Source: Gammaproteobacteria bacterium (lineage in GTDB: Bacteria; Pseudomonadota; Gammaproteobacteria; DRLM01). Taken from it: 64,000 nt of DNA. The position numbers were made by a program, and so were the translations under genes. The DNA lies in NCBI GenBank assembly GCA_037381915.1, contig JARRQJ010000003.1, positions 71,794-135,793 on the forward strand, given 5' to 3'. Below are positions 39,316-52,493 of this stretch, in pieces. The notes beneath the pieces are model-generated. The model saw only the letters and a program-made list of their open reading frames with translations. It did not search any database and was not told where the DNA came from. How positions within the stretch are numbered: position 1 is the first letter of the stretch; the number at the start of each line of letters is the position of its first letter.

Positions 39316-40411
39316 TTACAATCCGCTCTTCAAGCTTGCTTCAATAAATCCGTCCAGATCGCCGTCCAGCGCCGCCTGGGTATTACCCACCTCGACGCCG
39401 GTACGCAGGTCTTTGATGCGGGACTGATCCAACACATAGGAGCGAATCTGACTGCCCCAGCCGATGTCCGACTTGCTGTCTTCCAGCGCCTGCTCGGCGA
39501 CGCGGCGCTTCTGCATCTCCATTTCATACAGCTTGGCCTTGAGCTGTTTCATGGCAGTGGCGCGATTCTTATGTTGCGAGCGATCGCTTTGACACGATAC
39601 CACGATACCGCTGGGAACGTGAGTAATGCGGATGGCCGACTCGGTGCGGTTGACGTGCTGTCCGCCGGCGCCGCTGGCGCGATAGGTGTCCACCTTCAAA
39701 TCCACGGGGTTGATTTCGATATCGATGTCATCGTCCACTTCCGGTGATATGAACACCGAGGCGAACGAGGTGTGCCGACGGTTGCCGGAGTCGAACGGCG
39801 ATTTACGGACCAGGCGATGCACCCCGGTCTCGGTACGCAACCAGCCGTAGGCGTAATCCCCCTCGAATTTCACCGTTGCGCTCTTGATCCCCGCCACTTC
39901 ACCGTCGGAGATCTCGATGATTTCCGTGTTGAAGCCGTGCCGCTCGCCCCAACGCAGGTACATCCGCAGTAGCATGTTGGCCCAATCCTGGGCCTCGGTG
40001 CCGCCGGAGCCGGCCTGGATGTCCATGAAGGCGTTGTTGGGATCCATCTCGCCGGAAAACATGCGGCGAAATTCCAGGGCTTCAAGGTGCCCTTCCAATC
40101 TGTCCAGGTCGGCAACCACCCCCTCCACCGTCGCCTCGTCCCCCTCCTCCTCGGCCAATTCCAGCAATCCGCCGGCGTCCTCCAAACCCGTGTCCAGTGA
40201 GCGGATGGTATTCACCACCTGTTCAAGCCTGGCCCGCTCCCTGCCCAAATCCTGGGCGCGCTCCGGTTTATTCCAGATATCAGGTTCTTCCAGTTCCCGC
40301 TCGACCTCCACCAACCGCTCACGCTTGGTGTCGTAGTCAAAGATACCCCCTCAGGGAGGCGGCCCGCTCCCTCATGTCGTCGATGCGTCTATATATGATA
40401 TTGATTTCCAT
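39316..40411 (-). CDS. prfB: Peptide chain release factor 2 with programmed +1 ribosomal frameshift
   Basis: Frame 0: ATG 40411 then [24 protein letters not shown] ending at an in-frame TGA (40339..40337). The sequence AGG GGG TAT CTT TGA C is the canonical RF2 autoregulatory shift site. The +1 frame continues [22 protein letters not shown].. to the stop at 39316. Contains the SPF and GGQ motifs. Confidence 0.9.
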
Positions 40412-40592
40412 AATGAAAATGTAGTTGCCCCATCAAAAATAGTTGGTGATTTTAGCACAACCGCCCAAGTCAGGCCTAACGTTTTCAAGGTGTTAATGCG
40501 TCAGCATACTACCGCGTGGCTTGCTTACCGGATACTTAATGACGCAGCGCTCTTACCTAAAGAAACAAAATGAAGGCTTGCCTTAATCCATT

Positions 40593-40612
40593 TTTGGGAT
40601 AGAATTCCCAAA
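40593..40612. promoter_or_regulatory. 20-bp palindrome TTTGGGA-TAGAAT-TCCCAAA about 82 nt upstream of cassette-1 gene A1
   Basis: Perfect 7-bp inverted arms; the same arms and spacing recur upstream of A2 (45098..45117); candidate operator for the cassette. Confidence 0.5.
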
Positions 40613-40693
40613 TACGGTTCTTGGCAAACCTGACAATTCGCAACCGTCGCTTCACGGTTCTTAATTGGTGGCATTAAGGTAAGGAGCATCATC

Positions 40694-42196
40694 ATGATGA
40701 CGCAACAGCAGATCGCGATCGCGGGGACCGCCCTTGCAATCACGCTGACCCTCATGGCTTGTGGCAGCGGTAGCGACGGTACCAGCGGATCCCTGTCTTC
40801 CAGCTCGACGACAACGACCAGTCAAGGCGTCATTACCGGCTTTGGCAGCGTCTTCGTTAACGGCGTCGAATATTACATCGGCAACAACACCGCAATCAGT
40901 GTCAACGGACGTGATAGGTCGGAATCCGACCTGCAACTGGGCATGTTGGTCACTGTGAAAGGCACCGTAAACCCGGACGGCAAGATCGGCATGGCGAACG
41001 AGATCACCTACGCCAACCAGGTGAATGGCGTGGTAACCGCGAACACCGTAAGCAGCGACGGCACCGGCACCTTGACGGTCATGGGCCAAACCGTCACCGT
41101 CACCGCCGATACGGTGTTCGACAGTAACGTCGCCGGCATCACCTCGCCGGACCTCATACAAGTCGGCAACATCGTCGAGATCAGCGGCTATGCCTCGAAT
41201 ACCGGTGACATCACGGCAACCCGCATCGAGGTGAAGGCCAGTTCCCAGACGGCTGTAGCGATGATAGAGGTGAAAGGCGTCATCTCGAATCTCGACACGA
41301 CCACTTCCACGTTCACCATCGGCGGTCTGACGGTCGATTACAGCGGACTCAGCGCCGCCAACCTGCCCAGCGTCGCCCTCGCGGACGGCCTCTATGTCGA
41401 AGTAAAAAGCACGACGACCTTCGATGGGACTGGCCCGTTAGTCGCGAGCGCGATCTATCTGGAAGACGATGGTTTCAAAGGTCATGATGGCCACGAAGGC
41501 GAAGGTCTCGAAGTATGGGGCCTAGTCACCGCGGATTATGCCAATGGCCAGTTTGAGGTGAACGGACGCACCGTTCAGGTCGATGCAAACACTCTGCTCG
41601 TCAACGGCACCACCGACCAGTTGCTGACCGGCAACCAGATCAAGGTCCGCACTCACTATGACGCCAATGGCAATCTGGTGGCGGATAGGATCGAATTCAA
41701 ATTTACTACCGCATATGAATTCCAGGGAACCCTGCAAGCGGTCGACACCACAGCCGGCACGGTCACGGTGCTCGGTAAGACCATCTACGTCAACTCCAGT
41801 ACTCTCATGATGGACAAGAGCAGTGACGCCATGCGTTACTTCAGTCTCACCGACCTGGATCCCAATAACTCCGATTATCTCGAAGTCCATGCCTATAAGG
41901 ACGCCGCCACCGGCAACTTAATCGCCACCAAGCTGGAACGGGAAAGCTACTCGTCCCAGTCTAAGCTCATCGGGCCGGTGCAAGCCGTTAACAGCCTCGT
42001 CGTAGCCGACGTCCCCGTCGACACCTCCACCGCGGGCATCATTCCCACCCTGAATGTGGGCCAGACCGTGATGATCATCGGCAGCTATAGCAACGATACC
42101 TTGACGGCCACGAAGCTTTCAGTGGTTCAGCCCCTGGCGTCGGAGCATGGCTTTGAAACCTATCATGACAATCATTTCGACGAACATATGAGTTAA
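40694..42196 (+). CDS. Modular lipoprotein A1 (500 aa): signal peptide plus lipobox, Ser/Thr linker, then about 6 tandem beta-rich modules of ~75 aa (recalls DUF5666-type modules)
   Basis: AAGGAGC RBS; N-terminus MMTQQQIAIAGTALAITLTLMAC-GSGS (lipobox LMAC); repeated motif ..G.I..h.....F.V.GQTV.V.A.T.F.......L..G..VEV.G.....G.I.AT.IE..; paralog of A2. Confidence 0.8.
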   Translation: MMTQQQIAIAGTALAITLTLMACGSGSDGTSGSLSSSSTTTTSQGVITGFGSVFVNGVEYYIGNNTAISVNGRDRSESDLQLGMLVTVKGTVNPDGKIGMANEITYANQVNGVVTANTVSSDGTGTLTVMGQTVTVTADTVFDSNVAGITSPDLIQVGNIVEISGYASNTGDITATRIEVKASSQTAVAMIEVKGVISNLDTTTSTFTIGGLTVDYSGLSAANLPSVALADGLYVEVKSTTTFDGTGPLVASAIYLEDDGFKGHDGHEGEGLEVWGLVTADYANGQFEVNGRTVQVDANTLLVNGTTDQLLTGNQIKVRTHYDANGNLVADRIEFKFTTAYEFQGTLQAVDTTAGTVTVLGKTIYVNSSTLMMDKSSDAMRYFSLTDLDPNNSDYLEVHAYKDAATGNLIATKLERESYSSQSKLIGPVQAVNSLVVADVPVDTSTAGIIPTLNVGQTVMIIGSYSNDTLTATKLSVVQPLASEHGFETYHDNHFDEHMS

Positions 42197-42261
42197 TATC
42201 CAGCTACGCAACGTAAGGCATGCTATAGAAGCGGTGATCTTGACAACCAGTTATCAATTGT

Positions 42262-43083
42262 ATGGCAACGGCACTCAATAAAGCCCTCTCAGCGGCGATC
42301 CTCAGGCTTCTCCGCCCTCTGGTACGCATATTGTTGCGCAATGGCGTTTCCTATAATGGCTTTGCTGATCTGGCGAAATGGATGTTCGTGGACGTCGCCG
42401 CCAAGGAATTCGGCGTCCCCGGACGTAAACAATCCGACTCGCGAATTTCTGTAGTTACCGGACTGACGCGCAAGGAAGTGGCGCGGGTCAAAGGCATTGA
42501 GACCCCGGACGACAGCGCTGCCGAACAGCAGTACAATCGAGCCGCCCGGGTCATCGCCGGGTGGTTGCGCGACCGACGCTTCTGTGCGCAGGACGGATCC
42601 CCCACGCTTCTCCCCTTTGATGGCGAAAACAGTTTCAGCGAATTGGTCAAATCCTACAGCGGCGACATGACTGCACGCTCCATTCTCGATGAACTAATAC
42701 GCGTCGGCGCGGTCGAACGCACTCAAGAGGGTATGATACATCTGCTTGTCTCAGCCTATGTACCAGTGGGCAGTGATGCCGGAAAGCTCCATATTCTCGG
42801 CACCGATATAGCTTTGCTCATTGGAACCATTGACCACAACATGCACGAGTCGCAACAACAACCCCGTTTTCAGCGCAAGGTTGCCTACGACAACCTGCCC
42901 GAAGAGGCTCTGCCCAAACTGCGGGAGTTGGCCAATGCTCATGGTCAGGCACTGCTGCAGGAAATCGATCGTTATCTATCTCAGCAGGACCGCGACATCA
43001 ATCCGGGCGTTGAGGGAACCGGACGCAAGCACGCGGGCCTAGGCATCTACCTATTCGAGGAAGATGTGCCCGAGGAGAATTGA
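42262..43083 (+). CDS. Cassette protein R1 (273 aa): soluble, uncharacterized, with an HTH-like segment (SRISVVTGLTRKEVARVK); paralog of R2
   Basis: About 70% identical to R2 by eye; no TM or signal peptide; stop TGA 43081-43083 lies 1 nt before the B1 ATG; C-terminal EDVPEEN codons encode the GAGGAGAA SD for B1. Confidence 0.75.
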   Translation: MATALNKALSAAILRLLRPLVRILLRNGVSYNGFADLAKWMFVDVAAKEFGVPGRKQSDSRISVVTGLTRKEVARVKGIETPDDSAAEQQYNRAARVIAGWLRDRRFCAQDGSPTLLPFDGENSFSELVKSYSGDMTARSILDELIRVGAVERTQEGMIHLLVSAYVPVGSDAGKLHILGTDIALLIGTIDHNMHESQQQPRFQRKVAYDNLPEEALPKLRELANAHGQALLQEIDRYLSQQDRDINPGVEGTGRKHAGLGIYLFEEDVPEEN

Positions 43084-43084
43084 C

Positions 43085-44623
43085 ATGGCAAGCCAGCGAG
43101 TCAGATATTTCAGCTTGATGACCGTATTTCTACTCGGTCTCGTGGCTTGCGGCGGCGGCACGCAGGTAGCCGGTGGCGGTATCGGTGGCACCGGCATCAG
43201 TCAGGGCCCTATCACTGGCTTCGGCAGCATTTTCGTCAACGGTGTCGAATTCAATACCGACAACGCTACCATCATCAAGGACGGCACAGCCATCGGCCCT
43301 GTTTCTACGAGCGAGCTGAAAAATTATTTGAAGGTCGGCATGGTGGTCACCGTTGACGGTAGCATCGCCAACAGCATCAGCGGCACGGCCGCCAGCGTGA
43401 CCTATGCCAAGGAATTGGAGGGACCCATCTCCGCCATCACGCTTCCCAACACTCTCTCCGTACTCGGACAAACGGTGATCGTGGACAATTTGACCAAGAT
43501 TGAGGTTGCGGGCTTAGCCACGCCGTCGATTTCCGATCTCGCGGTCGGCGACGTCGTCGAGGTAAGCGGTTATTCTACCGCCGCCGGTATTCGCGCCACC
43601 TATATCGACGCCAAACCAAGTGGTACAACGAAGGAATACGAATTAAACGGCATGATTGGCGCAATCAACGCAAGCAATCCCACCCTGCTCACCATCGGAA
43701 CCCAAACGGTGGATATCAACGGAGCCAGTTTTAACTTTACGCCGAAGGTCGGTGACTACGTCGAGGTCAAGGGCACAATCAGCGCGGGAGGCATTTTGGC
43801 GGCCACTTCGCTCGAACTCAAATCCCGTGCTTTAAACCTGGCGAATGCAGACAAAGCGGAAGTAGAAGGCTACGTCACGGCTACGACCTCCGCCACTGAG
43901 TTCGTACTAAACGCCCAAGTAGTACAGATCACCGCCCAAACCACGTTCAGCGGTGGCATCGCCTCCGATATTGTACCGGGAGTGATAGTTGAAGTTGAAG
44001 GATCCTTAGTCGACGGCACGCTCATCGCTACAAAGATATCCTTCGAGGATGATCTCGAATTGGAAGGAAATGTTGCAGCTATCAACACCTCCACAAACAC
44101 CTTAACCTTAGCTTCCTACCCCGCCATCAGTATCAGCTTCAGCGCCATTTTGACGGATCTTGAAGGCGTACCCAACTTCACTGCAATTAACCCCGGTGAC
44201 CATATAAAGGTACGGGGGCGTCCGCTGGACGCCTCCAACTGCAGTAGCGGGACATGTGTGTTGGCCACCCAGCTTACTCTGGAAAGCGCCGTCGCGGGAA
44301 GCACCGGCGGATCGAGCGGATCAACATCAACTGGCTCAAGCGGCTCAGGAAGCTCCACTGACAGTTCCGGTGGCTCGACCACATCGACAACGGACACCAC
44401 CACCGTCGAGCTTCAAGGCCCCATTGATAACATCGTACCTGGCCAAAGCTTCACCGTTCTCGGCGTTACGGTAGACGCTACTTCCCTGACCAGCTTTAGT
44501 GGCGATGGCATTACCGACAGCTCCACATTTTTTGACACGGTCAAAAGCGGCGATCTGGTCGATGTCACGGGGACACAAGTGGGCACGATTGTTACTTGGC
44601 AAGCGGTAGAACTAGACAACTGA
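43085..44623 (+). CDS. Modular lipoprotein B1 (512 aa): lipobox LVAC-GGG, Gly-rich linker, tandem beta-rich modules, Ser/Thr/Gly low-complexity tract and a conserved CxxxxC pair
   Basis: ATG 43085 with GAGGAGAA SD 7 nt upstream; N-terminus MASQRVRYFSLMTVFLLGLVAC; shares the module consensus of A-type but is a distinct subfamily; paralog of B2. Confidence 0.8.
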   Translation: MASQRVRYFSLMTVFLLGLVACGGGTQVAGGGIGGTGISQGPITGFGSIFVNGVEFNTDNATIIKDGTAIGPVSTSELKNYLKVGMVVTVDGSIANSISGTAASVTYAKELEGPISAITLPNTLSVLGQTVIVDNLTKIEVAGLATPSISDLAVGDVVEVSGYSTAAGIRATYIDAKPSGTTKEYELNGMIGAINASNPTLLTIGTQTVDINGASFNFTPKVGDYVEVKGTISAGGILAATSLELKSRALNLANADKAEVEGYVTATTSATEFVLNAQVVQITAQTTFSGGIASDIVPGVIVEVEGSLVDGTLIATKISFEDDLELEGNVAAINTSTNTLTLASYPAISISFSAILTDLEGVPNFTAINPGDHIKVRGRPLDASNCSSGTCVLATQLTLESAVAGSTGGSSGSTSTGSSGSGSSTDSSGGSTTSTTDTTTVELQGPIDNIVPGQSFTVLGVTVDATSLTSFSGDGITDSSTFFDTVKSGDLVDVTGTQVGTIVTWQAVELDN

Positions 44624-44942
44624 AAATGGAAAGTCTCCACCACCGCTAGAATTGCCTTTCGGCCTGCCGAATCCACCTTAAGCTTTTCTGGTGGGACCGA
44701 AAGCGTTTCTCTTGAGCGAGCTTCGCTGCTCTATACTCAGCCCTCATTGGCTACGGCGCATTGCGACACCATTGCAGGGCCACCCATACGAGCCCAACGC
44801 CCCCGCCCAAACGCAGAAAATCATCACGGCCGGGTTGTAGCTAGTCTCCGTAACTGTTCCTTTCCCACCAGCCATGCTGCGCTTGGCGCGTCGTCCCGGC
44901 GCAATCTCCTATGCAGTTCAAGCCAGGTGAGCCGCCTAGGAT

Positions 44943-44960
44943 GGGTATTCTGTGATACCC
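44943..44960. promoter_or_regulatory. Palindrome GGGTAT-TCTGTG-ATACCC in the inter-cassette spacer
   Basis: Perfect 6-bp inverted repeat with a 6-nt spacer, about 255 nt upstream of A2; significance unknown. Confidence 0.25.
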
Positions 44961-45097
44961 AACTGATTAGAATAATCACCATTCCCCAAACGATCCTAAC
45001 AGCGTGGATCGGCCTCTTCTCTCACCCACGGGCTGAATTACTCTGGAAATGTGACCCCACCCTCAGTTCCAGTATCTACTGCTTGCACGCCATCATT

Positions 45098-45117
45098 TTT
45101 GGGAATATTTTCCCAAA
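45098..45117. promoter_or_regulatory. 20-bp palindrome TTTGGGA-ATATTT-TCCCAAA about 81 nt upstream of cassette-2 gene A2
   Basis: Same arms and the same distance to the ATG as the element upstream of A1 (40593..40612); flanks are also similar (CATTTTTGGGA...TCCCAAATnC). Confidence 0.5.
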
Positions 45118-45197
45118 TGCAGAGCGCAACTTTTTGACGCCGCCTACCCGGTGGGCCCTGACAGAATTTTAATTATTAACAATAGAGGATTAATGTC

Positions 45198-46616
45198 ATG
45201 AAAAAACAATACATTGCACAATCCGCGATGGCGGCTGCCGTCTCCCTAGCTTTAGCTGCCTGTGGTGGCGGTAGCGCCGGTGGCCTAGCTTCATCCACAA
45301 CAACCCAGGGCGTCATTACCGGGTTCGGCAGCGTCTTTGTCAATGGAGTGGAATACAACACCGACTCCAGCACGGCCATCAATATGGAAGGCGTCGATAG
45401 CCCCGAATCCGCCCTCGAGGTCGGGATGCTTGTGACCTTGCAAGGTAGCGTCAATGCAGACGGCAAGACCGGGACGGCCAAGGCGATCAAATACTCCAAC
45501 CAAATGGAGGGGGTGGTCAATGCAAACAGTATCGCCGCCGATGGTACCGGCACCCTCACCGTGATGGGCGAAACCGTAAATGTCACCGCCGATACGATCT
45601 TCGAGAGTAAGGTCGCGGGGGTCACCGCTCTCAATCTCATCCAGGTAGGCAACATCGTGGAGGTCAGCGGCTACGCCTCAAGCACCGGGATAGTGATTGC
45701 TACGCGTATCGAAGTCAAGGCAGCGTCACAGGCACCAGGCTCCGTCATTGAGCTCAAGGGCATAATCTCCGGCCTCGATGCTACTAACAAGACCTTCATG
45801 TTCGGCAGTGTCACTGTAGATTACAGTGGGGTCACCCCAGCGGACATGCCCAGCGTCGGCTTGGCGAATGGACAATATGTCGAGGTCAAAAGCACCACCG
45901 CATACAACGGTACTGGCAACCTAGTCGCCGCCATCATCGAACTCAGTGATGATGGTGTGAAGGGGCATGACGGCAAGGAAGGCGAAGATCTTGAAGTCAA
46001 GGGCTTGGTCACGTCAAATTTCGCCAATGGTCAGTTCGAGTTGAACGGACGTGTTGTAACGGTTGATTCCAGCACCGAGTATGACAACGGTAGCACCGCA
46101 CAATTGCTGACCGGTGCAAAAGTCCAGATGGAGTCCCATTTTGACGCCAGCGGCAATCTGATCGCGGATCAAGTCGAATTCGAACAGACCTCTGAACTTG
46201 AATTCGCAGGGACCTTAGAGGCGGTCGATACAACAGCCGACACCGTCACGATCATGGGGCAGCAATTCTATGTGGACAACAACACCATCATGCTCGATGA
46301 CCTCAATGCAGTCCGCTTCTTTAAACTGGCCGATTTGTCTGTTGCCAATAGCGATCATCTGGAGATAAATGCCTATACAGATGCAGCTACGGGGCATCTC
46401 GTCGCCACAAGACTTGAACGCACGCAATTCGCTACAGAGGCAACGCTGACAGGGGTAGTGGATACCACTAATACGTTGACAGTATCGGGTGTTCCCGTTG
46501 ACACGTCTACGACGACCGGAGTTATTCCAACTCTGACCACCGGCAGCAAGGTGGAAATCACCGGCACCTATATCAACGGCGTACTGTATGCCAGCCAAAT
46601 AAACCTGGCGATCTGA
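45198..46616 (+). CDS. Modular lipoprotein A2 (472 aa), paralog of A1
   Basis: AGAGGA RBS; MKKQYIAQSAMAAAVSLALAAC-GGGS lipobox; the same ~6 modules in the same order as A1 (for example TLTVMGETVNVTADTIFESKVAGVTALNLIQVGNIVEVSGYASSTG). Confidence 0.8.
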   Translation: MKKQYIAQSAMAAAVSLALAACGGGSAGGLASSTTTQGVITGFGSVFVNGVEYNTDSSTAINMEGVDSPESALEVGMLVTLQGSVNADGKTGTAKAIKYSNQMEGVVNANSIAADGTGTLTVMGETVNVTADTIFESKVAGVTALNLIQVGNIVEVSGYASSTGIVIATRIEVKAASQAPGSVIELKGIISGLDATNKTFMFGSVTVDYSGVTPADMPSVGLANGQYVEVKSTTAYNGTGNLVAAIIELSDDGVKGHDGKEGEDLEVKGLVTSNFANGQFELNGRVVTVDSSTEYDNGSTAQLLTGAKVQMESHFDASGNLIADQVEFEQTSELEFAGTLEAVDTTADTVTIMGQQFYVDNNTIMLDDLNAVRFFKLADLSVANSDHLEINAYTDAATGHLVATRLERTQFATEATLTGVVDTTNTLTVSGVPVDTSTTTGVIPTLTTGSKVEITGTYINGVLYASQINLAI

Positions 46617-47458
46617 TGAGGCTACGCAAGCTTGATTGGTGTAACCGGACCGCGGCAATTGTCCGCCTGCTTCGCCCGCTGATCCGCATCTTGCTGCGTA
46701 ACGGCATCTCCTATAACGCTTTTGCGGATTTGGCGAAATGGGTATACGTAGATGTGGCGAGCAAAGAATTCACCGTGCCGGGGCGCAAGCAATCCGTTTC
46801 ACGTATTTCGGTGATTACCGGCTTGACGCGCAAGGAAGTTGCGCGCGTTAAAAGCATCACCGTCCCTAGCGATACCGATGAAGCTGCGCAATACAACCGT
46901 GCGTCACGTGTAATTGGTGGGTGGCTACGCGATCGCCGCTTTTCCCCGCAAGATGGACTTGCCGCGCCACTCCCATTCGATGGCGTCGGAGGCTTTAACG
47001 AGCTCGTCAGAACCTACAGTGGCGACATGACGGCGCGAGCCATGCTTGATGAGCTACTTCGGGCCGGCGCCGTTTCTCGGGATCAGAACGGTGCCATTCA
47101 TCTCCTAGCCTCCGGTTACATACCTAAGGACAGTGATCCCGCCAAGCTCAATATCCTTGGCAGCGACGTGGCGCTGTTGATCGGTACTATAGACCATAAC
47201 TTGCAGATCTCCGAGGAACCGCCTCGCTTTCAACGCAAAGTCGCCTATGACAACCTTCCCGTGGAGGCGCTCCCCAAACTCAGAAAATTCACCCAAGAGC
47301 GCGCCCAAGCTGTACTCGAAGAAGTCAACCGCTATCTATCCCAACAAGATCGCGACATCAATCCATCCATGCAGGGTTCCGCCCGAAAGAACGCCGGCAT
47401 CGGCATTTATTATTTTGAAGAGGATGTGCCTGAGGAGAACGAAAATGGCAATTCATAG
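46616..47458 (+). CDS. Cassette protein R2 (280 aa), paralog of R1
   Basis: ATG overlaps the A2 stop (TGATG); same HTH-like segment SRISVITGLTRKEVARVK; C-terminal ..EDVPEENENGNS overlaps the B2 start by 14 nt. Confidence 0.75.
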   Translation: MRLRKLDWCNRTAAIVRLLRPLIRILLRNGISYNAFADLAKWVYVDVASKEFTVPGRKQSVSRISVITGLTRKEVARVKSITVPSDTDEAAQYNRASRVIGGWLRDRRFSPQDGLAAPLPFDGVGGFNELVRTYSGDMTARAMLDELLRAGAVSRDQNGAIHLLASGYIPKDSDPAKLNILGSDVALLIGTIDHNLQISEEPPRFQRKVAYDNLPVEALPKLRKFTQERAQAVLEEVNRYLSQQDRDINPSMQGSARKNAGIGIYYFEEDVPEENENGNS

Positions 47459-48827
47459 ATTCATTCACACTACATTAATCTCACTCCTGGTGGCCGGCAT
47501 GGTCGCTTGCGGCGGCACCCAATTGGCCGGTGGCGGCATCGGCGGAACCGGCATCAGCCAAGGCCCCATTACCGGGTTCGGTAGCATCTTCGTTAATGGC
47601 GTCGAATTCAACACTAACAACGCCACCATAATCAAAGACGGCCTTCCGGTTACGCAAAAAGATCTGAAGGTCGGCATGATAGTCACTGTTAGCGGTAACA
47701 TCGCCACCAGCACCAGTGGCACAGCGGCCACCGTAACCTACGCCAAAGAACTACAAGGACCGATTACCGCCATCACTCTCCCCAACACCCTCACCGTACT
47801 AGGTCAAGAAGTAAATGTTGATAACTTTACCAAGATTGAGGTAACGGGTGTATCGTCCGCGGGAATCGCCAATCTTAATCTGCAGGACACGGTAGAGGTC
47901 AGCGGATTTCCCGCAGTGAATGGCGCTATTCGCGCCACTTACATCGAGGTTAAACCACCCAGCGCCGACGTCGAACTCACAGGATTTGTCAGCGCAAGTG
48001 CAAACAAGGTCGTTACCATCGGTACTCAGGCGGTGGATATCAGCGCTATCAACCCATTAGTCACGCCTGTGCTCGGCGAGTACGTGGAAGTGAAGGGTGT
48101 CCTGAGTGGGACGATTTTGCAGGCAAGCTCTTTTGACGCGAAGTCTCGCTCACTGGAATCCACCAACGCCGACAAGGCGGAACTGCAAGGTCTTGTCAAC
48201 AGCGTGAACTCCTCGACCGAGTTTCTGATAAACGGCCAGGCGGTACAAACGAGCTCACAAACGAATTTCAATGGCGGCACTGCCGACGATATTAACGTCG
48301 GACAGTGGCTTGAAGTTGAAGGTAGCCTGGCAAACGGCGTACTCATCGCCGCCACGGTAACTTTCGAAGATGATATAAGCCTGGAAGGTAATGTAGCCGC
48401 CTTAAACGGCAATAGCATAAGCCTAGACGGTTATCCCGGCATCAGCATAGAAGTGAATGACGTATTGACCGATGGCAGTACCAATCCGCATGGCATTGGA
48501 GACCATGTAAAGATTCGGGGCCGCAAACTCAGCTCGAGCTGTGGCACAGCGGTATGTCTGCTCGCAACGGAACTCGAGTCAACGACGATAAGCGGTGCAA
48601 CACCGATGGAACTGCAAGGGCCGCTCGAGGCATTTGATCCCGCGGCTGGAACCATTACCGTCCTTGGAATCACGATAGATACATCGCCTATTCAAAGCTT
48701 CAGCGGTACCGGCATTACGGACGCTACGAGCTTCTTTAATACCGTCAAAATCGGCGACCTGATCGATACCACTGGTAGCCAAGTGGGCGGCGCAATTACC
48801 TGGCAAGCGATAGAATTGAATGACTAA
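47445..48827 (+). CDS. Modular lipoprotein B2 (460 aa), paralog of B1
   Basis: ATG 47445 with GAGGAGAA SD; MAIHRFIHTTLISLLVAGMVAC-GGTQ lipobox; the GGGIGGTGISQGPITGFGSIFVNGVEFNT block is identical to B1; conserved SSCGTAVCLLATEL Cys pair. Confidence 0.8.
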   Translation: MAIHRFIHTTLISLLVAGMVACGGTQLAGGGIGGTGISQGPITGFGSIFVNGVEFNTNNATIIKDGLPVTQKDLKVGMIVTVSGNIATSTSGTAATVTYAKELQGPITAITLPNTLTVLGQEVNVDNFTKIEVTGVSSAGIANLNLQDTVEVSGFPAVNGAIRATYIEVKPPSADVELTGFVSASANKVVTIGTQAVDISAINPLVTPVLGEYVEVKGVLSGTILQASSFDAKSRSLESTNADKAELQGLVNSVNSSTEFLINGQAVQTSSQTNFNGGTADDINVGQWLEVEGSLANGVLIAATVTFEDDISLEGNVAALNGNSISLDGYPGISIEVNDVLTDGSTNPHGIGDHVKIRGRKLSSSCGTAVCLLATELESTTISGATPMELQGPLEAFDPAAGTITVLGITIDTSPIQSFSGTGITDATSFFNTVKIGDLIDTTGSQVGGAITWQAIELND

Positions 48828-48833
48828 AGCGAC

Positions 48834-49784
48834 TCAATTCACGCCATTGCGCGGCGTACCCTGTAGATACGCCTGAATATTCGCCGCGACCTCGTTCACC
48901 AGGCGCTGGCGCGATTCACGACTTGCCCAGGCGACATGCGGGGTAAGGATAAGATTCGGGACGTCGGCACTCAGCAACGGATTGTCGAGTGGCGGCTCCC
49001 GGGTAAGCACGTCGACGCCCGCGCCGCCCAAGTGGTGTGACCGCAACGCCTCCAACAGGGCCGACTCGTCGACGATGCCGCCGCGGGCGGTGTTGATCAG
49101 CACCGCGCCTCGCTTCATCGCCTGTAATTCCTTGGCACCGATCAAGCCGCGCGTCTCGTCCGTCAGCGGACAATGCAGGGTCAGTGCATCGACCGCCGGC
49201 AATAATTCCGCCAGTGCCACCCGCCCCGGCTGCGCCGCCCTGGCGGGACGTTCCGCGATCATCACCCTCATGCCGAAGGCCTCGGCGACTCTCGCGACCG
49301 CCCGGCCCAATTCGCCGTAGCCGACGATGCCCAGAATCCTGCCGTTCAATTCATGGATAGGAAAATCAAGAAAGGAAAAATGCACGCTCTTTTGCCAGCG
49401 CCCGGCCTGGACGGCTCGATGATAATCCGACACATGGCGCATCAAGCCCAATAACAGCGCGAAGACGTGCTCCACCACGGACGGTGTTGCGTAACCGCGC
49501 ACATTACAAACAGTGATACCCCGTCGCCTTGCCGCTTCCACATCGACATTGTTGGTGCCGGTGGCGGCGACACATATTAATTTGAGATGTTCGGCCGCGG
49601 CTAAGGACTTCTCATCCAGTATCACCTTATTGGTGATGAGGATGTCGGCCGTGGCGATGCGCCCGATTACGGCCGCCGGCGATGTGCTATCGAAATACTC
49701 CCACTCGATCCCCTCGCACTCCAACGCCCCCATATTCAAGGCGGATTGCCCCAAAGTACCGGCATCGAGAAATACTCCACGCAT
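48834..49784 (-). CDS. D-isomer-specific 2-hydroxyacid dehydrogenase (glycerate dehydrogenase/hydroxypyruvate reductase-like)
   Basis: 316 aa; NAD-binding G.G..G and catalytic-domain patterns typical of the D-2-hydroxyacid dehydrogenase family. Confidence 0.85.
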   Translation of the reverse strand: MRGVFLDAGTLGQSALNMGALECEGIEWEYFDSTSPAAVIGRIATADILITNKVILDEKSLAAAEHLKLICVAATGTNNVDVEAARRRGITVCNVRGYATPSVVEHVFALLLGLMRHVSDYHRAVQAGRWQKSVHFSFLDFPIHELNGRILGIVGYGELGRAVARVAEAFGMRVMIAERPARAAQPGRVALAELLPAVDALTLHCPLTDETRGLIGAKELQAMKRGAVLINTARGGIVDESALLEALRSHHLGGAGVDVLTREPPLDNPLLSADVPNLILTPHVAWASRESRQRLVNEVAANIQAYLQGTPRNGVN

Positions 49785-50247: not shown

Positions 50248-51201
50248 TCAGGCCGAGCGCAGGAAATGCACGCTGAACAGCGCCTCCGAGTCGGTCCATA
50301 CCCGCAGCGGCCGATAACCGGCACGACGGGCAAGCGCTTGAAACTCCTCGATGCTGTATTTGTAGGAGTTTTCGGTATGAATCGTCTCGCCTTCATCCAG
50401 GCTGAACTCGTGGCCGCCGACAACCACGCTCTGGGCTCGGCGGCTGATCAGATGCATCTCGACCCGCCCTTGCTGGCGATTGTAAAAGGCCTGGTGCCGA
50501 AAACCGTTGAGATCGATATGGGCGTCCAGATCGCGCTGCAGCCGGCCGAGAATATTGAGGTTGAAGGCGGCAGTGACACCGGCCGCGTCGTCGTACGCGG
50601 CTTCGATGCGCTTCACTTCCTTCTTGAGATCGATGCTGAGCAGCAGGGAGCCGCCCTCCCCCAGCAGATTGCGGAGATTGGCCAAAAAGGCCACCGCCGC
50701 ATCGGGTTCAAAGTTGCCCAGTGTCGAGCCGGGAAAGAACGCCACCCGCTTGGCGCCTTCGGGGAAAAAGTCCAGATTCAACGGTTGGCAGTAATCGGCG
50801 CAGACGGGATGGACTTCCAGCCAGTCATAATCCGCGGCGAGGGCCTCGGCGGAGCTGCGCAGCTGCTGGCGCGAGATATCGATGGGCACGTACATGGCGG
50901 GACGCAGGTGTTCGAGCAGCAGCCGTACTTTCACCCCCGCGCCGCTGCCCAGTTCCACCAAACAGGCGTCCTCTTCCACCAGCGCGGCCATTTCTCCGGC
51001 GTGGCGTTCCAGGATGGCGATCTCCGTGCGGGTGAGATAATACTCCGGCAACTCGCAGATGCGTTCGAACAGTTGCGCGCCGCGATGATCGTAGAACAGT
51101 TTGGGCGGTAATGCCTTCGGGGTCGCGGCCAGGCCTGCGAGCACCTCGCTCATCAAGCTTGCAGAACTCGGATGATAATCGTGGAAATAGACGCCGGCCA
51201 T
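50248..51201 (-). CDS. egtD: L-histidine N-alpha-methyltransferase EgtD (ergothioneine biosynthesis)
   Basis: 317 aa; SAM-methyltransferase motif LVELGSGAGVK; EgtD-like sequence (YVPIDIS, FFPGSTLGNF). Confidence 0.8.
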   Translation of the reverse strand: MAGVYFHDYHPSSASLMSEVLAGLAATPKALPPKLFYDHRGAQLFERICELPEYYLTRTEIAILERHAGEMAALVEEDACLVELGSGAGVKVRLLLEHLRPAMYVPIDISRQQLRSSAEALAADYDWLEVHPVCADYCQPLNLDFFPEGAKRVAFFPGSTLGNFEPDAAVAFLANLRNLLGEGGSLLLSIDLKKEVKRIEAAYDDAAGVTAAFNLNILGRLQRDLDAHIDLNGFRHQAFYNRQQGRVEMHLISRRAQSVVVGGHEFSLDEGETIHTENSYKYSIEEFQALARRAGYRPLRVWTDSEALFSVHFLRSA

Positions 51202-52493
51202 TATCTCGGATCGTCCGCCAGGCGGATGCCGCTGAATTGCCAGCGATCGGCGGGGTAAAAGAAATTGCGGTAGCTGGCGCGGATGTGACCCGCCGGGGTG
51301 GCACAGGAGCCGCCGCGCAACACGATCTGATTACACATGAATTTCCCGTTATATTCGCCGAGCGTGCCGGCCAGGGGACGAAAACCCGGATAGGCGACAT
51401 AGGGGCTTTGCGTCCATTCCCATACATCGCCGTAGAGCTGCCGCATCCCCGCGCCCTGCGCGGCCATGGGATGATAACGGTCCGTGCCTTGAAGATTGCC
51501 GGTCACCGTCGCTTGCCGCGCCGCCACTTCCCACTCCGCTTCGGTGGGCAGACGCCTGCCGGCCCAGCGGGCGTAGGCATCCGCCTCATAATAACTCACG
51601 TGGCAGACCGGTTCATGCTCATCCACCGCGCGCATTCCGGCAAGGGTCATGTGCCGCCAGCCCCCGTCGCCGTATTCCCAATAAAGGGGGGCCTCCCAGC
51701 TGCGTTCCCTGACCGTGCGCCAGCCTTCCGACAACCAGTATTCCGGGCGTCGATAGCCATCATCCGCCATGAACTCCAGATATTCGCCGTTGGTGATCGG
51801 ACGTGAAGCCAGACGAAAGTCCTCAAGATAGACGCGATGGCGCGGGGTTTCATTGTCGTAACAAAACGCCTCCCCCGCGTGACCGATCTCATAAAGGCCG
51901 CCCGCGAATTCGTGCCATGCTGGCGCCGGGGGCGGCGCCGACACCCCGCGCCCCGTGTCCTGATATACCGGACACAGAGGCTGGGAGGCAAAGATATGCT
52001 TGATATCGGTGAGGAGCAATTCCTGATGCTGCTGCTCATGGTGGATACCGAGCGTAGCGCGGAAAGCCACATCCGGCCATTGTTGGTCCGGCATGCAGTC
52101 GATCAGCCGCACCATCCACTCATCGACATGATGTCGATAGCGATAAACCTCCTCCAGCGCCGGACGCGACAGAAAGCCGCGTCGGGACCGCGGATGCATG
52201 GGGCCCGCGCCTTCATAGTACGAGTTGAACAATACGGCGAATTGGGGATGGAACTCGCGATAATCGGACAGGAACGGCTTCAGCAGAAAGGTCTCGAACA
52301 ACCAACTGACATGAGCGAGGTGCCACTTGGGCGGACTGACGTCGGGCATGGTCTGCATGCAGCAGTCCTCCGCCGACAACGGCGCGCATAATTTCTCGCT
52401 CATGCCGCGTACGGACCGATAGTGCGACAACAGGGCTTGTCGCTCCGGCATAGCCGTTTCATTTCTCAGAGCCCTATCCGTCGGCGACGCCAT
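51201..52493 (-). CDS. egtB: Hercynine oxygenase / sulfoxide synthase EgtB (DinB_2 plus FGE-sulfatase domains)
   Basis: 430 aa; N-terminal DinB-like region with the HEQQHQELL iron-binding motif; C-terminal FGE-like domain; overlaps the egtD start. Confidence 0.8.
   Translation of the reverse strand: MASPTDRALRNETAMPERQALLSHYRSVRGMSEKLCAPLSAEDCCMQTMPDVSPPKWHLAHVSWLFETFLLKPFLSDYREFHPQFAVLFNSYYEGAGPMHPRSRRGFLSRPALEEVYRYRHHVDEWMVRLIDCMPDQQWPDVAFRATLGIHHEQQHQELLLTDIKHIFASQPLCPVYQDTGRGVSAPPPAPAWHEFAGGLYEIGHAGEAFCYDNETPRHRVYLEDFRLASRPITNGEYLEFMADDGYRRPEYWLSEGWRTVRERSWEAPLYWEYGDGGWRHMTLAGMRAVDEHEPVCHVSYYEADAYARWAGRRLPTEAEWEVAARQATVTGNLQGTDRYHPMAAQGAGMRQLYGDVWEWTQSPYVAYPGFRPLAGTLGEYNGKFMCNQIVLRGGSCATPAGHIRASYRNFFYPADRWQFSGIRLADDPR

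Follow-up and report, generated by a model that had tools for sequence, protein, structure and literature searches.

The window, i.e. the whole stretch of 64 kb that was analysed, contains six plus-strand open reading frames which form two paralogous A-R-B triplets:

40694-42196, plus strand: A1, predicted lipoprotein with the lipobox LMAC (Cys23), a Ser/Thr-rich tether, six DUF5666 OB-type modules and a His-rich C-terminal tail (PF18914, E 1.6e-50, 6 stretches)
42262-43083, plus strand: R1, DUF6502 protein of 273 aa, predicted to be cytoplasmic and to contain a helix-turn-helix (HTH), a winged helix and, towards the C-terminus, long helices; candidate autoregulator that would bind the operator
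43085-44623, plus strand: B1, predicted lipoprotein with LVAC (Cys22) and the conserved Gly tether GGGIGGTGIS; of its six OB-fold modules the last is set off by a Ser/Gly/Thr linker (aa 402-440)
45198-46616, plus strand: A2, predicted lipoprotein with LAAC (Cys22) and six DUF5666 modules (PF18914, E 5.2e-47, 6 stretches)
46616-47458, plus strand: R2, DUF6502 protein of 280 aa (PF20112, E 2.1e-84)
47445-48827, plus strand: B2, predicted lipoprotein with MVAC (Cys22), the same GGGIGGTGIS tether as B1 and OB-fold modules (PF18914, E 4.9e-38)

The public gene call for A1 also has 500 aa, the start codons of B1 and B2 are consistent with public gene calls and homologue lengths, and that of B2 is backed by a 460-aa homologue with 99.8% identity. 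Global amino-acid identity amounts to 58.6% for A1/A2, 69.4% for R1/R2 and 58.1% for B1/B2, and to approximately 34% between A and B. At the DNA level identity is 70-75%. Since synonymous sites are saturated between the copies (pS 0.68-0.76) and dN/dS is only about 0.16-0.18, the duplication is old, with purifying selection on both copies. A first-pass annotation of this DNA had described the triplets as roughly 60-70% identical and as a block duplication that diverged and is not recent, and the measured values bear this out.

The A2 stop codon overlaps the R2 start codon (TGATG), the B1 ATG lies 1 nt after the R1 stop codon, and R2 and B2 overlap by 14 nt; these junctions were found as they had been annotated. 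It had also been proposed that the codons of the R C-terminus double as the Shine-Dalgarno sequence of B. Such an element indeed precedes each B start codon by 5 nt:

43072-43079, plus strand: GAGGAGAA, encodes the C-terminal Glu-Glu-Asn of R1 and is positioned, as read from the sequence, as Shine-Dalgarno of B1, 5 nt before the ATG
47432-47439, plus strand: GAGGAGAA, lies within the region encoding the R2 C-terminus and is positioned, read in the same way, as Shine-Dalgarno of B2, 5 nt before the start codon

All four large proteins had been annotated as carrying lipoprotein signal peptides, and each lipobox was located (LMAC, LVAC, LAAC and MVAC in A1, B1, A2 and B2, respectively, at residues 19-23). 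The Cys codons start at 40760 (A1), 43148 (B1), 45261 (A2) and 47508 (B2), and each is followed by a Gly codon. The lipobox Cys is invariant among 48 B homologues, and relatives have lipoproteins in which GGG comes directly after LYSC, LINC or LNAC. Judged by signal peptide and lipobox, A and B are probably membrane-anchored lipoproteins, and the Gly (rather than Asp) at position +2 suggests sorting to the outer membrane. The suggested assignment to DUF5666 proved right: PF18914 matches A1 and B1 with 169.6 bits each, A2 with 158.4 and B2 with 129.7 bits (3-6 repeats per protein, E 5e-38 to 2e-50), far above the Pfam gathering threshold of 27 bits, which is the same for PF20112. Identical proteins in public annotation carry the DUF6502 and DUF5666 names. 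The tandem beta-rich modules expected from the first-pass annotation are seen in the AlphaFold2 model of B1 as six beta modules, each an OB fold, that is, a five-stranded beta-barrel superposing on known OB domains. A sequence-profile search of the PDB with the B alignment gave no match, and in the alignment of B homologues the invariant residues are mostly Gly, with no conservation of a ligand site. The periplasmic OB-fold proteins YgiW/BOF, PilY2 and YobA are single-domain, whereas A and B would present about six modules on a lipid anchor. The combination of anchor, tether and a string of OB-fold beads suggests that A and B form an extended scaffold in the envelope or on the cell surface, or else a ligand-binding stalk, and are not enzymes.

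The R proteins match PF20112 (DUF6502) over its full length, R1 with 293.2 bits (profile positions 2-266 of 268) and R2 with 283 bits (E 1e-84 to 1e-87). Earlier they were described as soluble, HTH-like proteins of about 275 aa, which agrees with their length and with the model, in which helices 59-66 and 70-77 would form an HTH and residues 125-161 a winged helix, and long helices follow at the C-terminus. Conserved Arg and Lys residues are found in the HTH and winged-helix elements. The C-terminal tail YYFEEDVxEE and many polar residues in the C-terminal half are invariant, and the family alignment contains no conserved Cys or His suited to metal sensing. The fold matches of R are weak and are to DNA-binding domains (sigma region 4, DeoR, TetR, MarR, IclR, IscR and HetR), and a PDB sequence-profile search with the R alignment found no relative and no close solved structure. 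HetR (PDB 4izz, 4hri) reaches a TM-score of only 0.31 against R, a weak fold-level resemblance to be taken as a lead; membership in the HetR family was rejected, as PF03574 and PF18460 gave no hit and hhalign probabilities of 0.2% and 0.03%.

Each cassette is preceded by a sigma-70-like promoter with its -10 hexamer inside a palindrome:

40578-40583, plus strand: -35-like hexamer TTGCCT of cassette 1, from a promoter scan; its geometry matches cassette 2, and related loci have TTGACA at this position
40593-40612, unstranded: putative operator 1, perfect palindrome TTTGGGA-TAGAAT-TCCCAAA, approximately 81 nt upstream of the A1 ATG; its spacer (40600-40605) is the -10-like hexamer
45083-45088, plus strand: -35-like hexamer TTGCAC of cassette 2, offset from the palindrome by 15 nt as in cassette 1; GCTTGC is conserved in the alignment
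45098-45117, unstranded: putative operator 2, perfect palindrome TTTGGGA-ATATTT-TCCCAAA with an AT-rich, -10-like spacer, approximately 80 nt upstream of the A2 ATG

The pattern TTTGGGA-N6-TCCCAAA occurs exactly twice in the window, both times 80-82 nt before A1 or A2, while 0.18 matches are expected by chance. An independent promoter scan returned TTGCCT-16 nt-TAGAAT at 40578-40605. Operator 1 is kept in orthologues and paralogues and its flanks diverge. A sigma-54 promoter was considered for the conserved TTGGCAA...TGACAA block that lies downstream of operator 1, and dismissed because the spacing does not fit.

The palindrome marks these operons in Gammaproteobacteria, Desulfobacterota and Nitrospirota. 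The exact form TTGGGA-N6-TCCCAA is present in 49 of 80 related genome loci; with up to two mismatches, 71 of them carry it no more than 400 nt before the first gene of the operon, and 77 have it upstream of R. All sites with at most one mismatch in 968,608 nt of related loci lie at the operon promoters. In these loci the TGGGA and TCCCA cores are invariant and the spacer is TATAAT-like, and at 47 of 79 sites a TTGACA-like hexamer (at least 4 of 6 positions) is located 16-18 nt upstream. Where A and R are separated, each is preceded by one operator. In many loci from Desulfobacterota, Nitrospirota and metagenomes the operator is followed after 2-5 nt by the ATG of R, as expected for a leaderless transcript starting from the -10 in the spacer.

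The same comparison changes the view of the conserved unit. The A-R-B triplet of the first-pass annotation is real in the window; it does not hold as a unit across genomes, since a lipoprotein gene directly follows R in 79 of 80 loci and only 18 have an A gene. By this comparison, both the A gene upstream of R and the tandem duplication were added to an R-lipoprotein core in particular lineages. The lipoproteins adjacent to R share the tether GG(I/T)GGTG although the remainder differs (DUF5666 or Beta_propel, PF09826), and more distant R genes are paired with beta-propeller lipoproteins. Besides the R-lipoprotein pair no neighbour gene conserved across lineages was found, and synteny with housekeeping genes is lineage-specific (prfB-lysS and a 2-hydroxyacid dehydrogenase here, gatCAB and mreBCD in Thiodiazotropha). 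DUF6502 and DUF5666 occur mostly in sulfur-cycling and sediment taxa; carriers include sulfur-oxidising symbionts (Thiodiazotropha, tubeworm endosymbionts), Thiohalomonadales, Desulfobacterales and Nitrospirota.

As stated in the first-pass annotation, no component has a characterised function: the only families matched are DUF6502 and DUF5666, to which R corresponds end to end and A/B with 3-6 repeats, and these Pfam entries themselves carry no function. The cassette proteins had no match in NCBIfam, and A1, R1 and B1 none among the PADLOC anti-phage models. Our literature search retrieved no paper naming DUF6502, DUF5666 only as incidental table entries, and nothing relevant for the operator motif and the Pfam accessions; the R-lipoprotein pairing and the operator are undescribed in that literature. 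What is new here, on comparative grounds, is the R-lipoprotein core unit and the conserved palindrome around the -10 region of these operons.

Based on these observations we propose that each cassette is transcribed as a single A-R-B operon from the sigma-70-type promoter, with the -10 hexamer in the 6-bp spacer of the inverted repeat TTTGGGA/TCCCAAA. A dimer, most likely of the cassette's own R, would bind this operator, occlude the -10 region and thereby repress its own operon until some cue lifts the repression. In the products A and B, a Cys carrying the lipid anchor would be followed by a flexible tether rich in Gly or in Ser/Thr and by about six OB-fold beads, with R and the translationally coupled lipoprotein as the conserved core. 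The earlier idea of R as a candidate regulator is strengthened by the conserved operator in the promoter, which had escaped the first-pass annotation. Autoregulated operons which start with the repressor gene and have an operator overlapping the -10 region are well known, e.g. those of ArsR/SmtB-type and TetR-type local repressors. Like these, R is a small protein, predicted to be cytoplasmic and to have an HTH, that is encoded with its putative targets, the dyad site lies over the -10 region, and in many lineages the R transcript is apparently leaderless. In contrast to them, R is the middle gene in this window, has neither sequence nor full-length fold relation to these families and lacks conserved metal-sensing Cys or His residues. 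The data show the gene structure, the family memberships, the folds and how conserved and specific the palindrome is; binding and repression by R and the location of the lipoproteins are inferred. Taken as a whole, the model of a lipoprotein operon autorepressed by R at the palindrome seems to us rather probable, its weakest part being the link to cytochromes described below.

The palindrome could instead belong to another, unlinked regulator, R being a cytoplasmic partner of the lipoprotein precursor (a chaperone, targeting factor or modifying enzyme) that is kept in a fixed ratio with B by translational coupling. In line with this, R and B abut or overlap in nearly all loci, the R tail and the polar residues of the C-terminal half are invariant, the tether is kept across otherwise differing lipoproteins as if it were recognised, and the resemblance of R to DNA-binding proteins is weak. 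However, across approximately 1 Mb of related loci the operator is restricted to these operons, as would suit a binder encoded close by, and apart from the lipoprotein gene only R is conserved. Further, conserved Arg and Lys occur in the predicted HTH and winged-helix elements of R, and the conservation of the acidic tail of R is partly due to the overlapping Shine-Dalgarno sequence of B. We regard a partner role as unlikely. Much less probable still is that the inverted repeat acts in the RNA, as an attenuator or stability element in the 5'-UTR: its seven-base arms and 6-nt loop could fold into a hairpin, but the arms are invariant, with no compensatory changes, and a TATAAT-like spacer with TTGACA 16-18 nt upstream implies that transcription should begin past the left arm. 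The R ATG 2-5 nt after the right arm in many loci and an Rfam scan of 39800-49200 with no match also speak against a hairpin.

Autorepression by R may operate as proposed on lipoproteins of quite different use. A role of A and B in multihaem-cytochrome electron transfer at the envelope is hinted at by association, and is our weakest inference; it draws on the fusion of DUF5666 to a cytochrome in some relatives and on giant lipoprotein cytochromes of metagenomes whose genes are preceded by the same operator. In tubeworm-symbiont loci the A-type protein combines DUF5666 with a nine-haem MtrC/c7-type cytochrome and is under the same operator; the nine-haem domain matches Cytochrome_C7 and c3, with MtrC/MtrF domains II/IV below threshold. 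In at least three distinct families of metagenome contigs, genes for 36-haem and nine-haem cytochromes have the exact 18-mer operator 44-141 nt upstream, and the site is kept before diverged 36-haem lipoprotein genes while its own flanks differ. Together with the prevalence of the families in sulfur-cycling and sediment taxa, this argues against the view that the lipoproteins serve as generic scaffolds or adhesins of the envelope, have no part in electron transfer, and that the haem fusion, like the operators next to cytochrome genes, reflects lineage-specific recruitment or coincidence. That view is favoured by the lack of CxxCH motifs in A1, A2, B1 and B2 (no ORF of the window has two or more), by 74 of 80 loci without a haem partner, by the housekeeping neighbours, and by the beta-propeller lipoproteins that accompany more distant R genes; we give it an even chance. 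Likeness to outer-surface lipoprotein cytochromes of the MtrC/OmcA type is confined to the relatives' fusion proteins and the operator-linked 36-haem cytochromes, all with a Cys-Gly-Gly-Gly lipobox and a Gly-rich tether, while A and B of the window differ from them by having no haem-binding motifs. Among the metagenome loci returned for the 18-mer, approximately 17 of 80 represent one repeated human-gut sequence with the 18-mer inside a longer palindrome; these, and several matches in coding regions, were regarded as chance or unrelated.

It is tempting to speculate further, though we find it rather doubtful, that DUF6502 is the first of a new transcription-factor family (approximately 4,500 clusters at 50% identity) with a near-invariant -10 operator. 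Its regulon would comprise Gly-tethered surface lipoproteins, among them OB-fold bead-strings as well as the giant multihaem cytochromes with which sulfur-oxidising symbionts and sediment bacteria build electron-transfer conduits, be these extracellular or periplasmic. The haem-free DUF5666 lipoproteins of the window would then contribute to this electron-transfer surface as structural elements or by binding substrate. In any case, two large DUF families become a testable unit with a regulator candidate, a 20-bp operator, target genes and a multihaem-cytochrome lead. If R binds the operator, genome scans for the site would define the regulon in mostly uncultured organisms, and could reveal envelope components, overlooked by homology searches, that take part in electron transfer or interact with sulfur and minerals. 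Finally, the closest species harbours a single cassette, which was considered as a possible B1/B2 recombinant; its B gene has frame breaks and shows mixed similarity.

The finding of the first-pass annotation, two paralogous three-gene cassettes coding for a modular lipoprotein (A), a soluble protein (R) and a second modular lipoprotein (B), is real, and its interpretation is supported. The six genes are:

40694-42196, plus strand, A1
42262-43083, plus strand, R1
43085-44623, plus strand, B1
45198-46616, plus strand, A2
46616-47458, plus strand, R2
47445-48827, plus strand, B2

These coordinates agree with homologue lengths and with public gene calls on identical contigs (NCBI GCA_037381845.1 (JARRQK010000017.1), one JGI metagenome and two Logan assemblies). 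The junctions also read as first described: A2 and R2 overlap in TGATG, a single nucleotide separates the R1 stop from the B1 ATG, R2 runs 14 nt into B2, and GAGGAGAA is found 5 nt upstream of the B1 and B2 starts alike. The inter-cassette spacer (44624-45197, 574 bp) gave no Rfam match and no convincing intrinsic terminator downstream of B1, and its sole ORF (44747-45172, TTG start) looks spurious.

In all four large proteins the signal peptide closes in a lipobox whose Cys precedes a Gly, and this Cys is invariant across 48 B homologues. A and B match the Pfam family DUF5666 (PF18914), as the first-pass annotation had suggested, with E-values of 5e-38 to 2e-50 and three to six repeats per protein, while R1 and R2 match DUF6502 (PF20112) end to end (E 1.6e-87 and 2.1e-84, respectively). 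Searches revealed no sequence-detectable solved relative, no NCBIfam name and no PADLOC model for either family. In the literature search no DUF6502 paper was found, and DUF5666 appeared only as incidental table entries; in Dissulfuribacter thermophilus, a DUF5666 protein is among the 20 most abundant proteins in thiosulfate disproportionation (PMC13490349). In Pfam terms the products are ordinary members of two DUF families and, as had been proposed, the cassettes belong to no functionally characterised system. Each lipoprotein of cassette 1 has an addition that its paralogue lacks: in A1 a His-rich tail at the C-terminus (EHGFETYHDNHFDEHMS, 42143-42193), and in B1 a Ser/Gly/Thr linker of 39 aa that separates modules 5 and 6 (44288-44404).

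In global alignment, A1 and A2 share 58.6% of their amino acids, R1 and R2 69.4%, and B1 and B2 58.1%; A and B share approximately 34%. Synonymous sites of the A, R and B pairs are saturated (pS 0.68-0.76), with dN/dS of 0.16-0.18. Further, other organisms hold separate orthologue groups of B1 and B2 (62-73% and 66-69% identity), and the closest species representative (locus L001, R 86% identical) has a single cassette flanked by the same prfB-lysS and dehydrogenase neighbours as in the window. Taken together, these sequence comparisons indicate that the duplication is old, as first suggested, and that both copies were kept. The lone B gene of L001 (7824-9294) is split over three reading frames, so that it is a pseudogene unless the breaks are errors of long-read assembly; it is nearer to B1 at the N-terminus and slightly nearer to B2 in the middle.

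R has 5,503 database relatives (4,552 clusters at 50% identity) and is encoded in 481 stretches, with one genome per species. Our locus counts are based on the best 80 of these, which come from sulfur-oxidising Gammaproteobacteria (Thiodiazotropha, Sedimenticolaceae, tubeworm endosymbionts, Thiohalomonadales, Ectothiorhodospiraceae) and from Desulfobacterales, other Desulfobacterota and Nitrospirota. A DUF5666 protein gene follows R directly, overlapping or abutting it, in 79 of the 80 loci, the lone exception being cut by a contig end. Each of these 79 proteins has a signal peptide and Cys-Gly-Gly-Gly, and in 77 the tether GGxGG(T/S)G is present (GGGIGGTGIS in B1 and B2); the A-type proteins lack it. 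In the window it corresponds to:

43148-43210, plus strand, Gly tether of B1, right after the lipobox Cys, GG(I/T)GGTG(I/V)(S/T) near-invariant
47508-47570, plus strand, the same tether in B2

Even distant R genes (approximately 44% identity) that pair with other lipoproteins, for example Beta_propel (PF09826), have partners bearing C-x-EGGTGGTG. The tether, which is newly recognised as common to R-adjacent lipoproteins, could act in sorting or processing, or be the site of contact with a partner. Apart from lineage-specific housekeeping synteny, no further conserved neighbour was found in the related loci. Thus, the conserved module is R plus a tethered lipoprotein, and this coupling is the new, system-level description. 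Of the A-R-B co-occurrence considered in the first-pass annotation, the R-B part is general but only 18/80 loci have an A-type gene upstream; the A-R-B layout and its duplication are elaborations of the module.

Each cassette promoter contains a perfect TTTGGGA-N6-TCCCAAA palindrome, not noticed before and nearly invariant among relatives:

40593-40612, operator 1, spacer TAGAAT, upstream of A1
45098-45117, operator 2, spacer ATATTT, upstream of A2

These are the only two such sites in the 64-kb window (0.18 expected by chance). Both lie 81-82 nt upstream of the A1 and A2 start codons, with a TTGC-type -35 hexamer 15 nt further upstream, and an independent promoter scan returned TTGCCT-16-TAGAAT at 40578-40605. 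Outside this promoter/palindrome block the regions upstream of A1 and A2 have diverged. Of the related loci, 49/80 have an exact TTGGGA-N6-TCCCAA; when up to two mismatches are allowed, 71/80 have a site in the 400 nt preceding the first operon gene and 77/80 have one upstream of R. All sites with at most one mismatch in 968,608 nt are at operon promoters; two sites seemed to lie elsewhere because ORFs had been called too long. The sites have invariant TGGGA/TCCCA cores, and their spacer reads TATAAT in 17 cases and is AT-rich in the others; TTGACA (at least 4/6) is found 16-18 nt upstream in 47/79 sites. Loci with an intergenic gap between A and R have one operator copy for each. The R start codon follows the right arm by 2-5 nt in many loci from Desulfobacterota, Nitrospirota and metagenomes, which is where it would be expected in a leaderless mRNA starting from that -10 region.

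Since the palindrome is invariant over three phyla, surrounds the -10 region and is restricted to these operons, the best explanation is that a repressor encoded at the locus uses it as its operator. An inverted repeat could also act as an RNA hairpin; however, this role is unlikely, given that covariation between the arms is never seen and that transcription should start downstream of the left arm. The candidate repressor is R, the sole conserved non-lipoprotein gene product, in line with the embedded regulator suggested earlier. We infer that R, as a dimer, would bind the palindrome at the -10 region, occlude the promoter and thereby repress its own operon. In this model as a whole we have moderate confidence.

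Two operator copies, in tandem or approximately 40 nt apart, flank the -35 region in L045 (5453-5496), L073 (6501-6976) and upstream regions of L095, L117 and L145, a layout suggesting that in these lineages binding is cooperative or involves looping. The A1 leader also contains an inverted repeat, CTTAAT-N7-ATTAAG (40660-40678), directly 5' of the AAGGAG Shine-Dalgarno sequence, and a block TCTTGGCAA(N)CCTGACAA just downstream of operator 1; both are kept in the A1 orthologues of L001, L096, L114 and L118, all close relatives.

A search of a metagenome collection with the exact operator 18-mer TTGGGATATAATTCCCAA gave 106 stretches, 80 of which were fetched as loci. In 26 of these 80, R or an A-type DUF5666 gene lies directly downstream on the correct strand; the A-type genes begin after 81-89 nt, a distance like that in the window. 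Most remaining hits, which come from one repeated gut sequence or lie within coding regions, are due to chance. Three distinct contig families have the 18-mer ahead of genes for multihaem lipoprotein cytochromes, at a distance of 89-141 nt; the complete proteins have 1,101-1,123 aa and 36 CxxCH motifs. In a fourth family the distance is 44 nt and the gene codes for a nine-haem cytochrome of 1,144 aa. In these contigs the 18-mer is conserved and the flanks differ. Further, six genome loci (tubeworm endosymbionts, Sedimenticolaceae) encode, upstream of R and behind its own operator, an A-type protein of approximately 1,000 aa. It is a fusion: N-terminally it has a lipobox, the first module GFGSV(Y/F)V(D/N)GVEY of A-type proteins and more DUF5666 modules, and C-terminally a nine-haem domain matching Cytochrome_C7 and c3, with MtrC/MtrF domains II/IV below threshold. 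One further locus has an eight-haem cytochrome directly after B. The shared operator and the fusion are two lines that newly tie the module to envelope multihaem cytochromes. Since the window A and B proteins contain no haem motifs, the window locus is linked by association only, and a role in electron transfer is a lead which we consider possible but rather doubtful.

The gammaproteobacterial metagenome cluster L126 (also L160 and L104) encodes 9-, 10- and 15-haem cytochromes, the operator-preceded 36-haem lipoprotein, a CycH-like biogenesis protein and a 700-aa protein ending in YTYFF, possibly an outer-membrane barrel. The cluster, which adjoins hisD-hisG-murA, resembles a porin-cytochrome conduit.

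In the window, prfB has a programmed +1 frameshift site on the minus strand (40337-40353, AGGGGGTATCTTTGA, SD-like AGGGGG then CTT TGA). Its short first frame starts at the ATG at 40375, and the RF2 ORF (39316-40314) contains the PCRF and RF-1 domains; public annotation joins the frames to 365 aa. On the other side, a 2-hydroxyacid dehydrogenase gene converges on B2 at a distance of 6 nt. Just beyond it (50248-52493, minus strand), the gene of an EgtD-like histidine methyltransferase (Methyltransf_33, E 3e-113) adjoins that of an EgtB-like protein (FGE-sulfatase plus DinB_2), and by their domains the two look like an ergothioneine biosynthesis pair.
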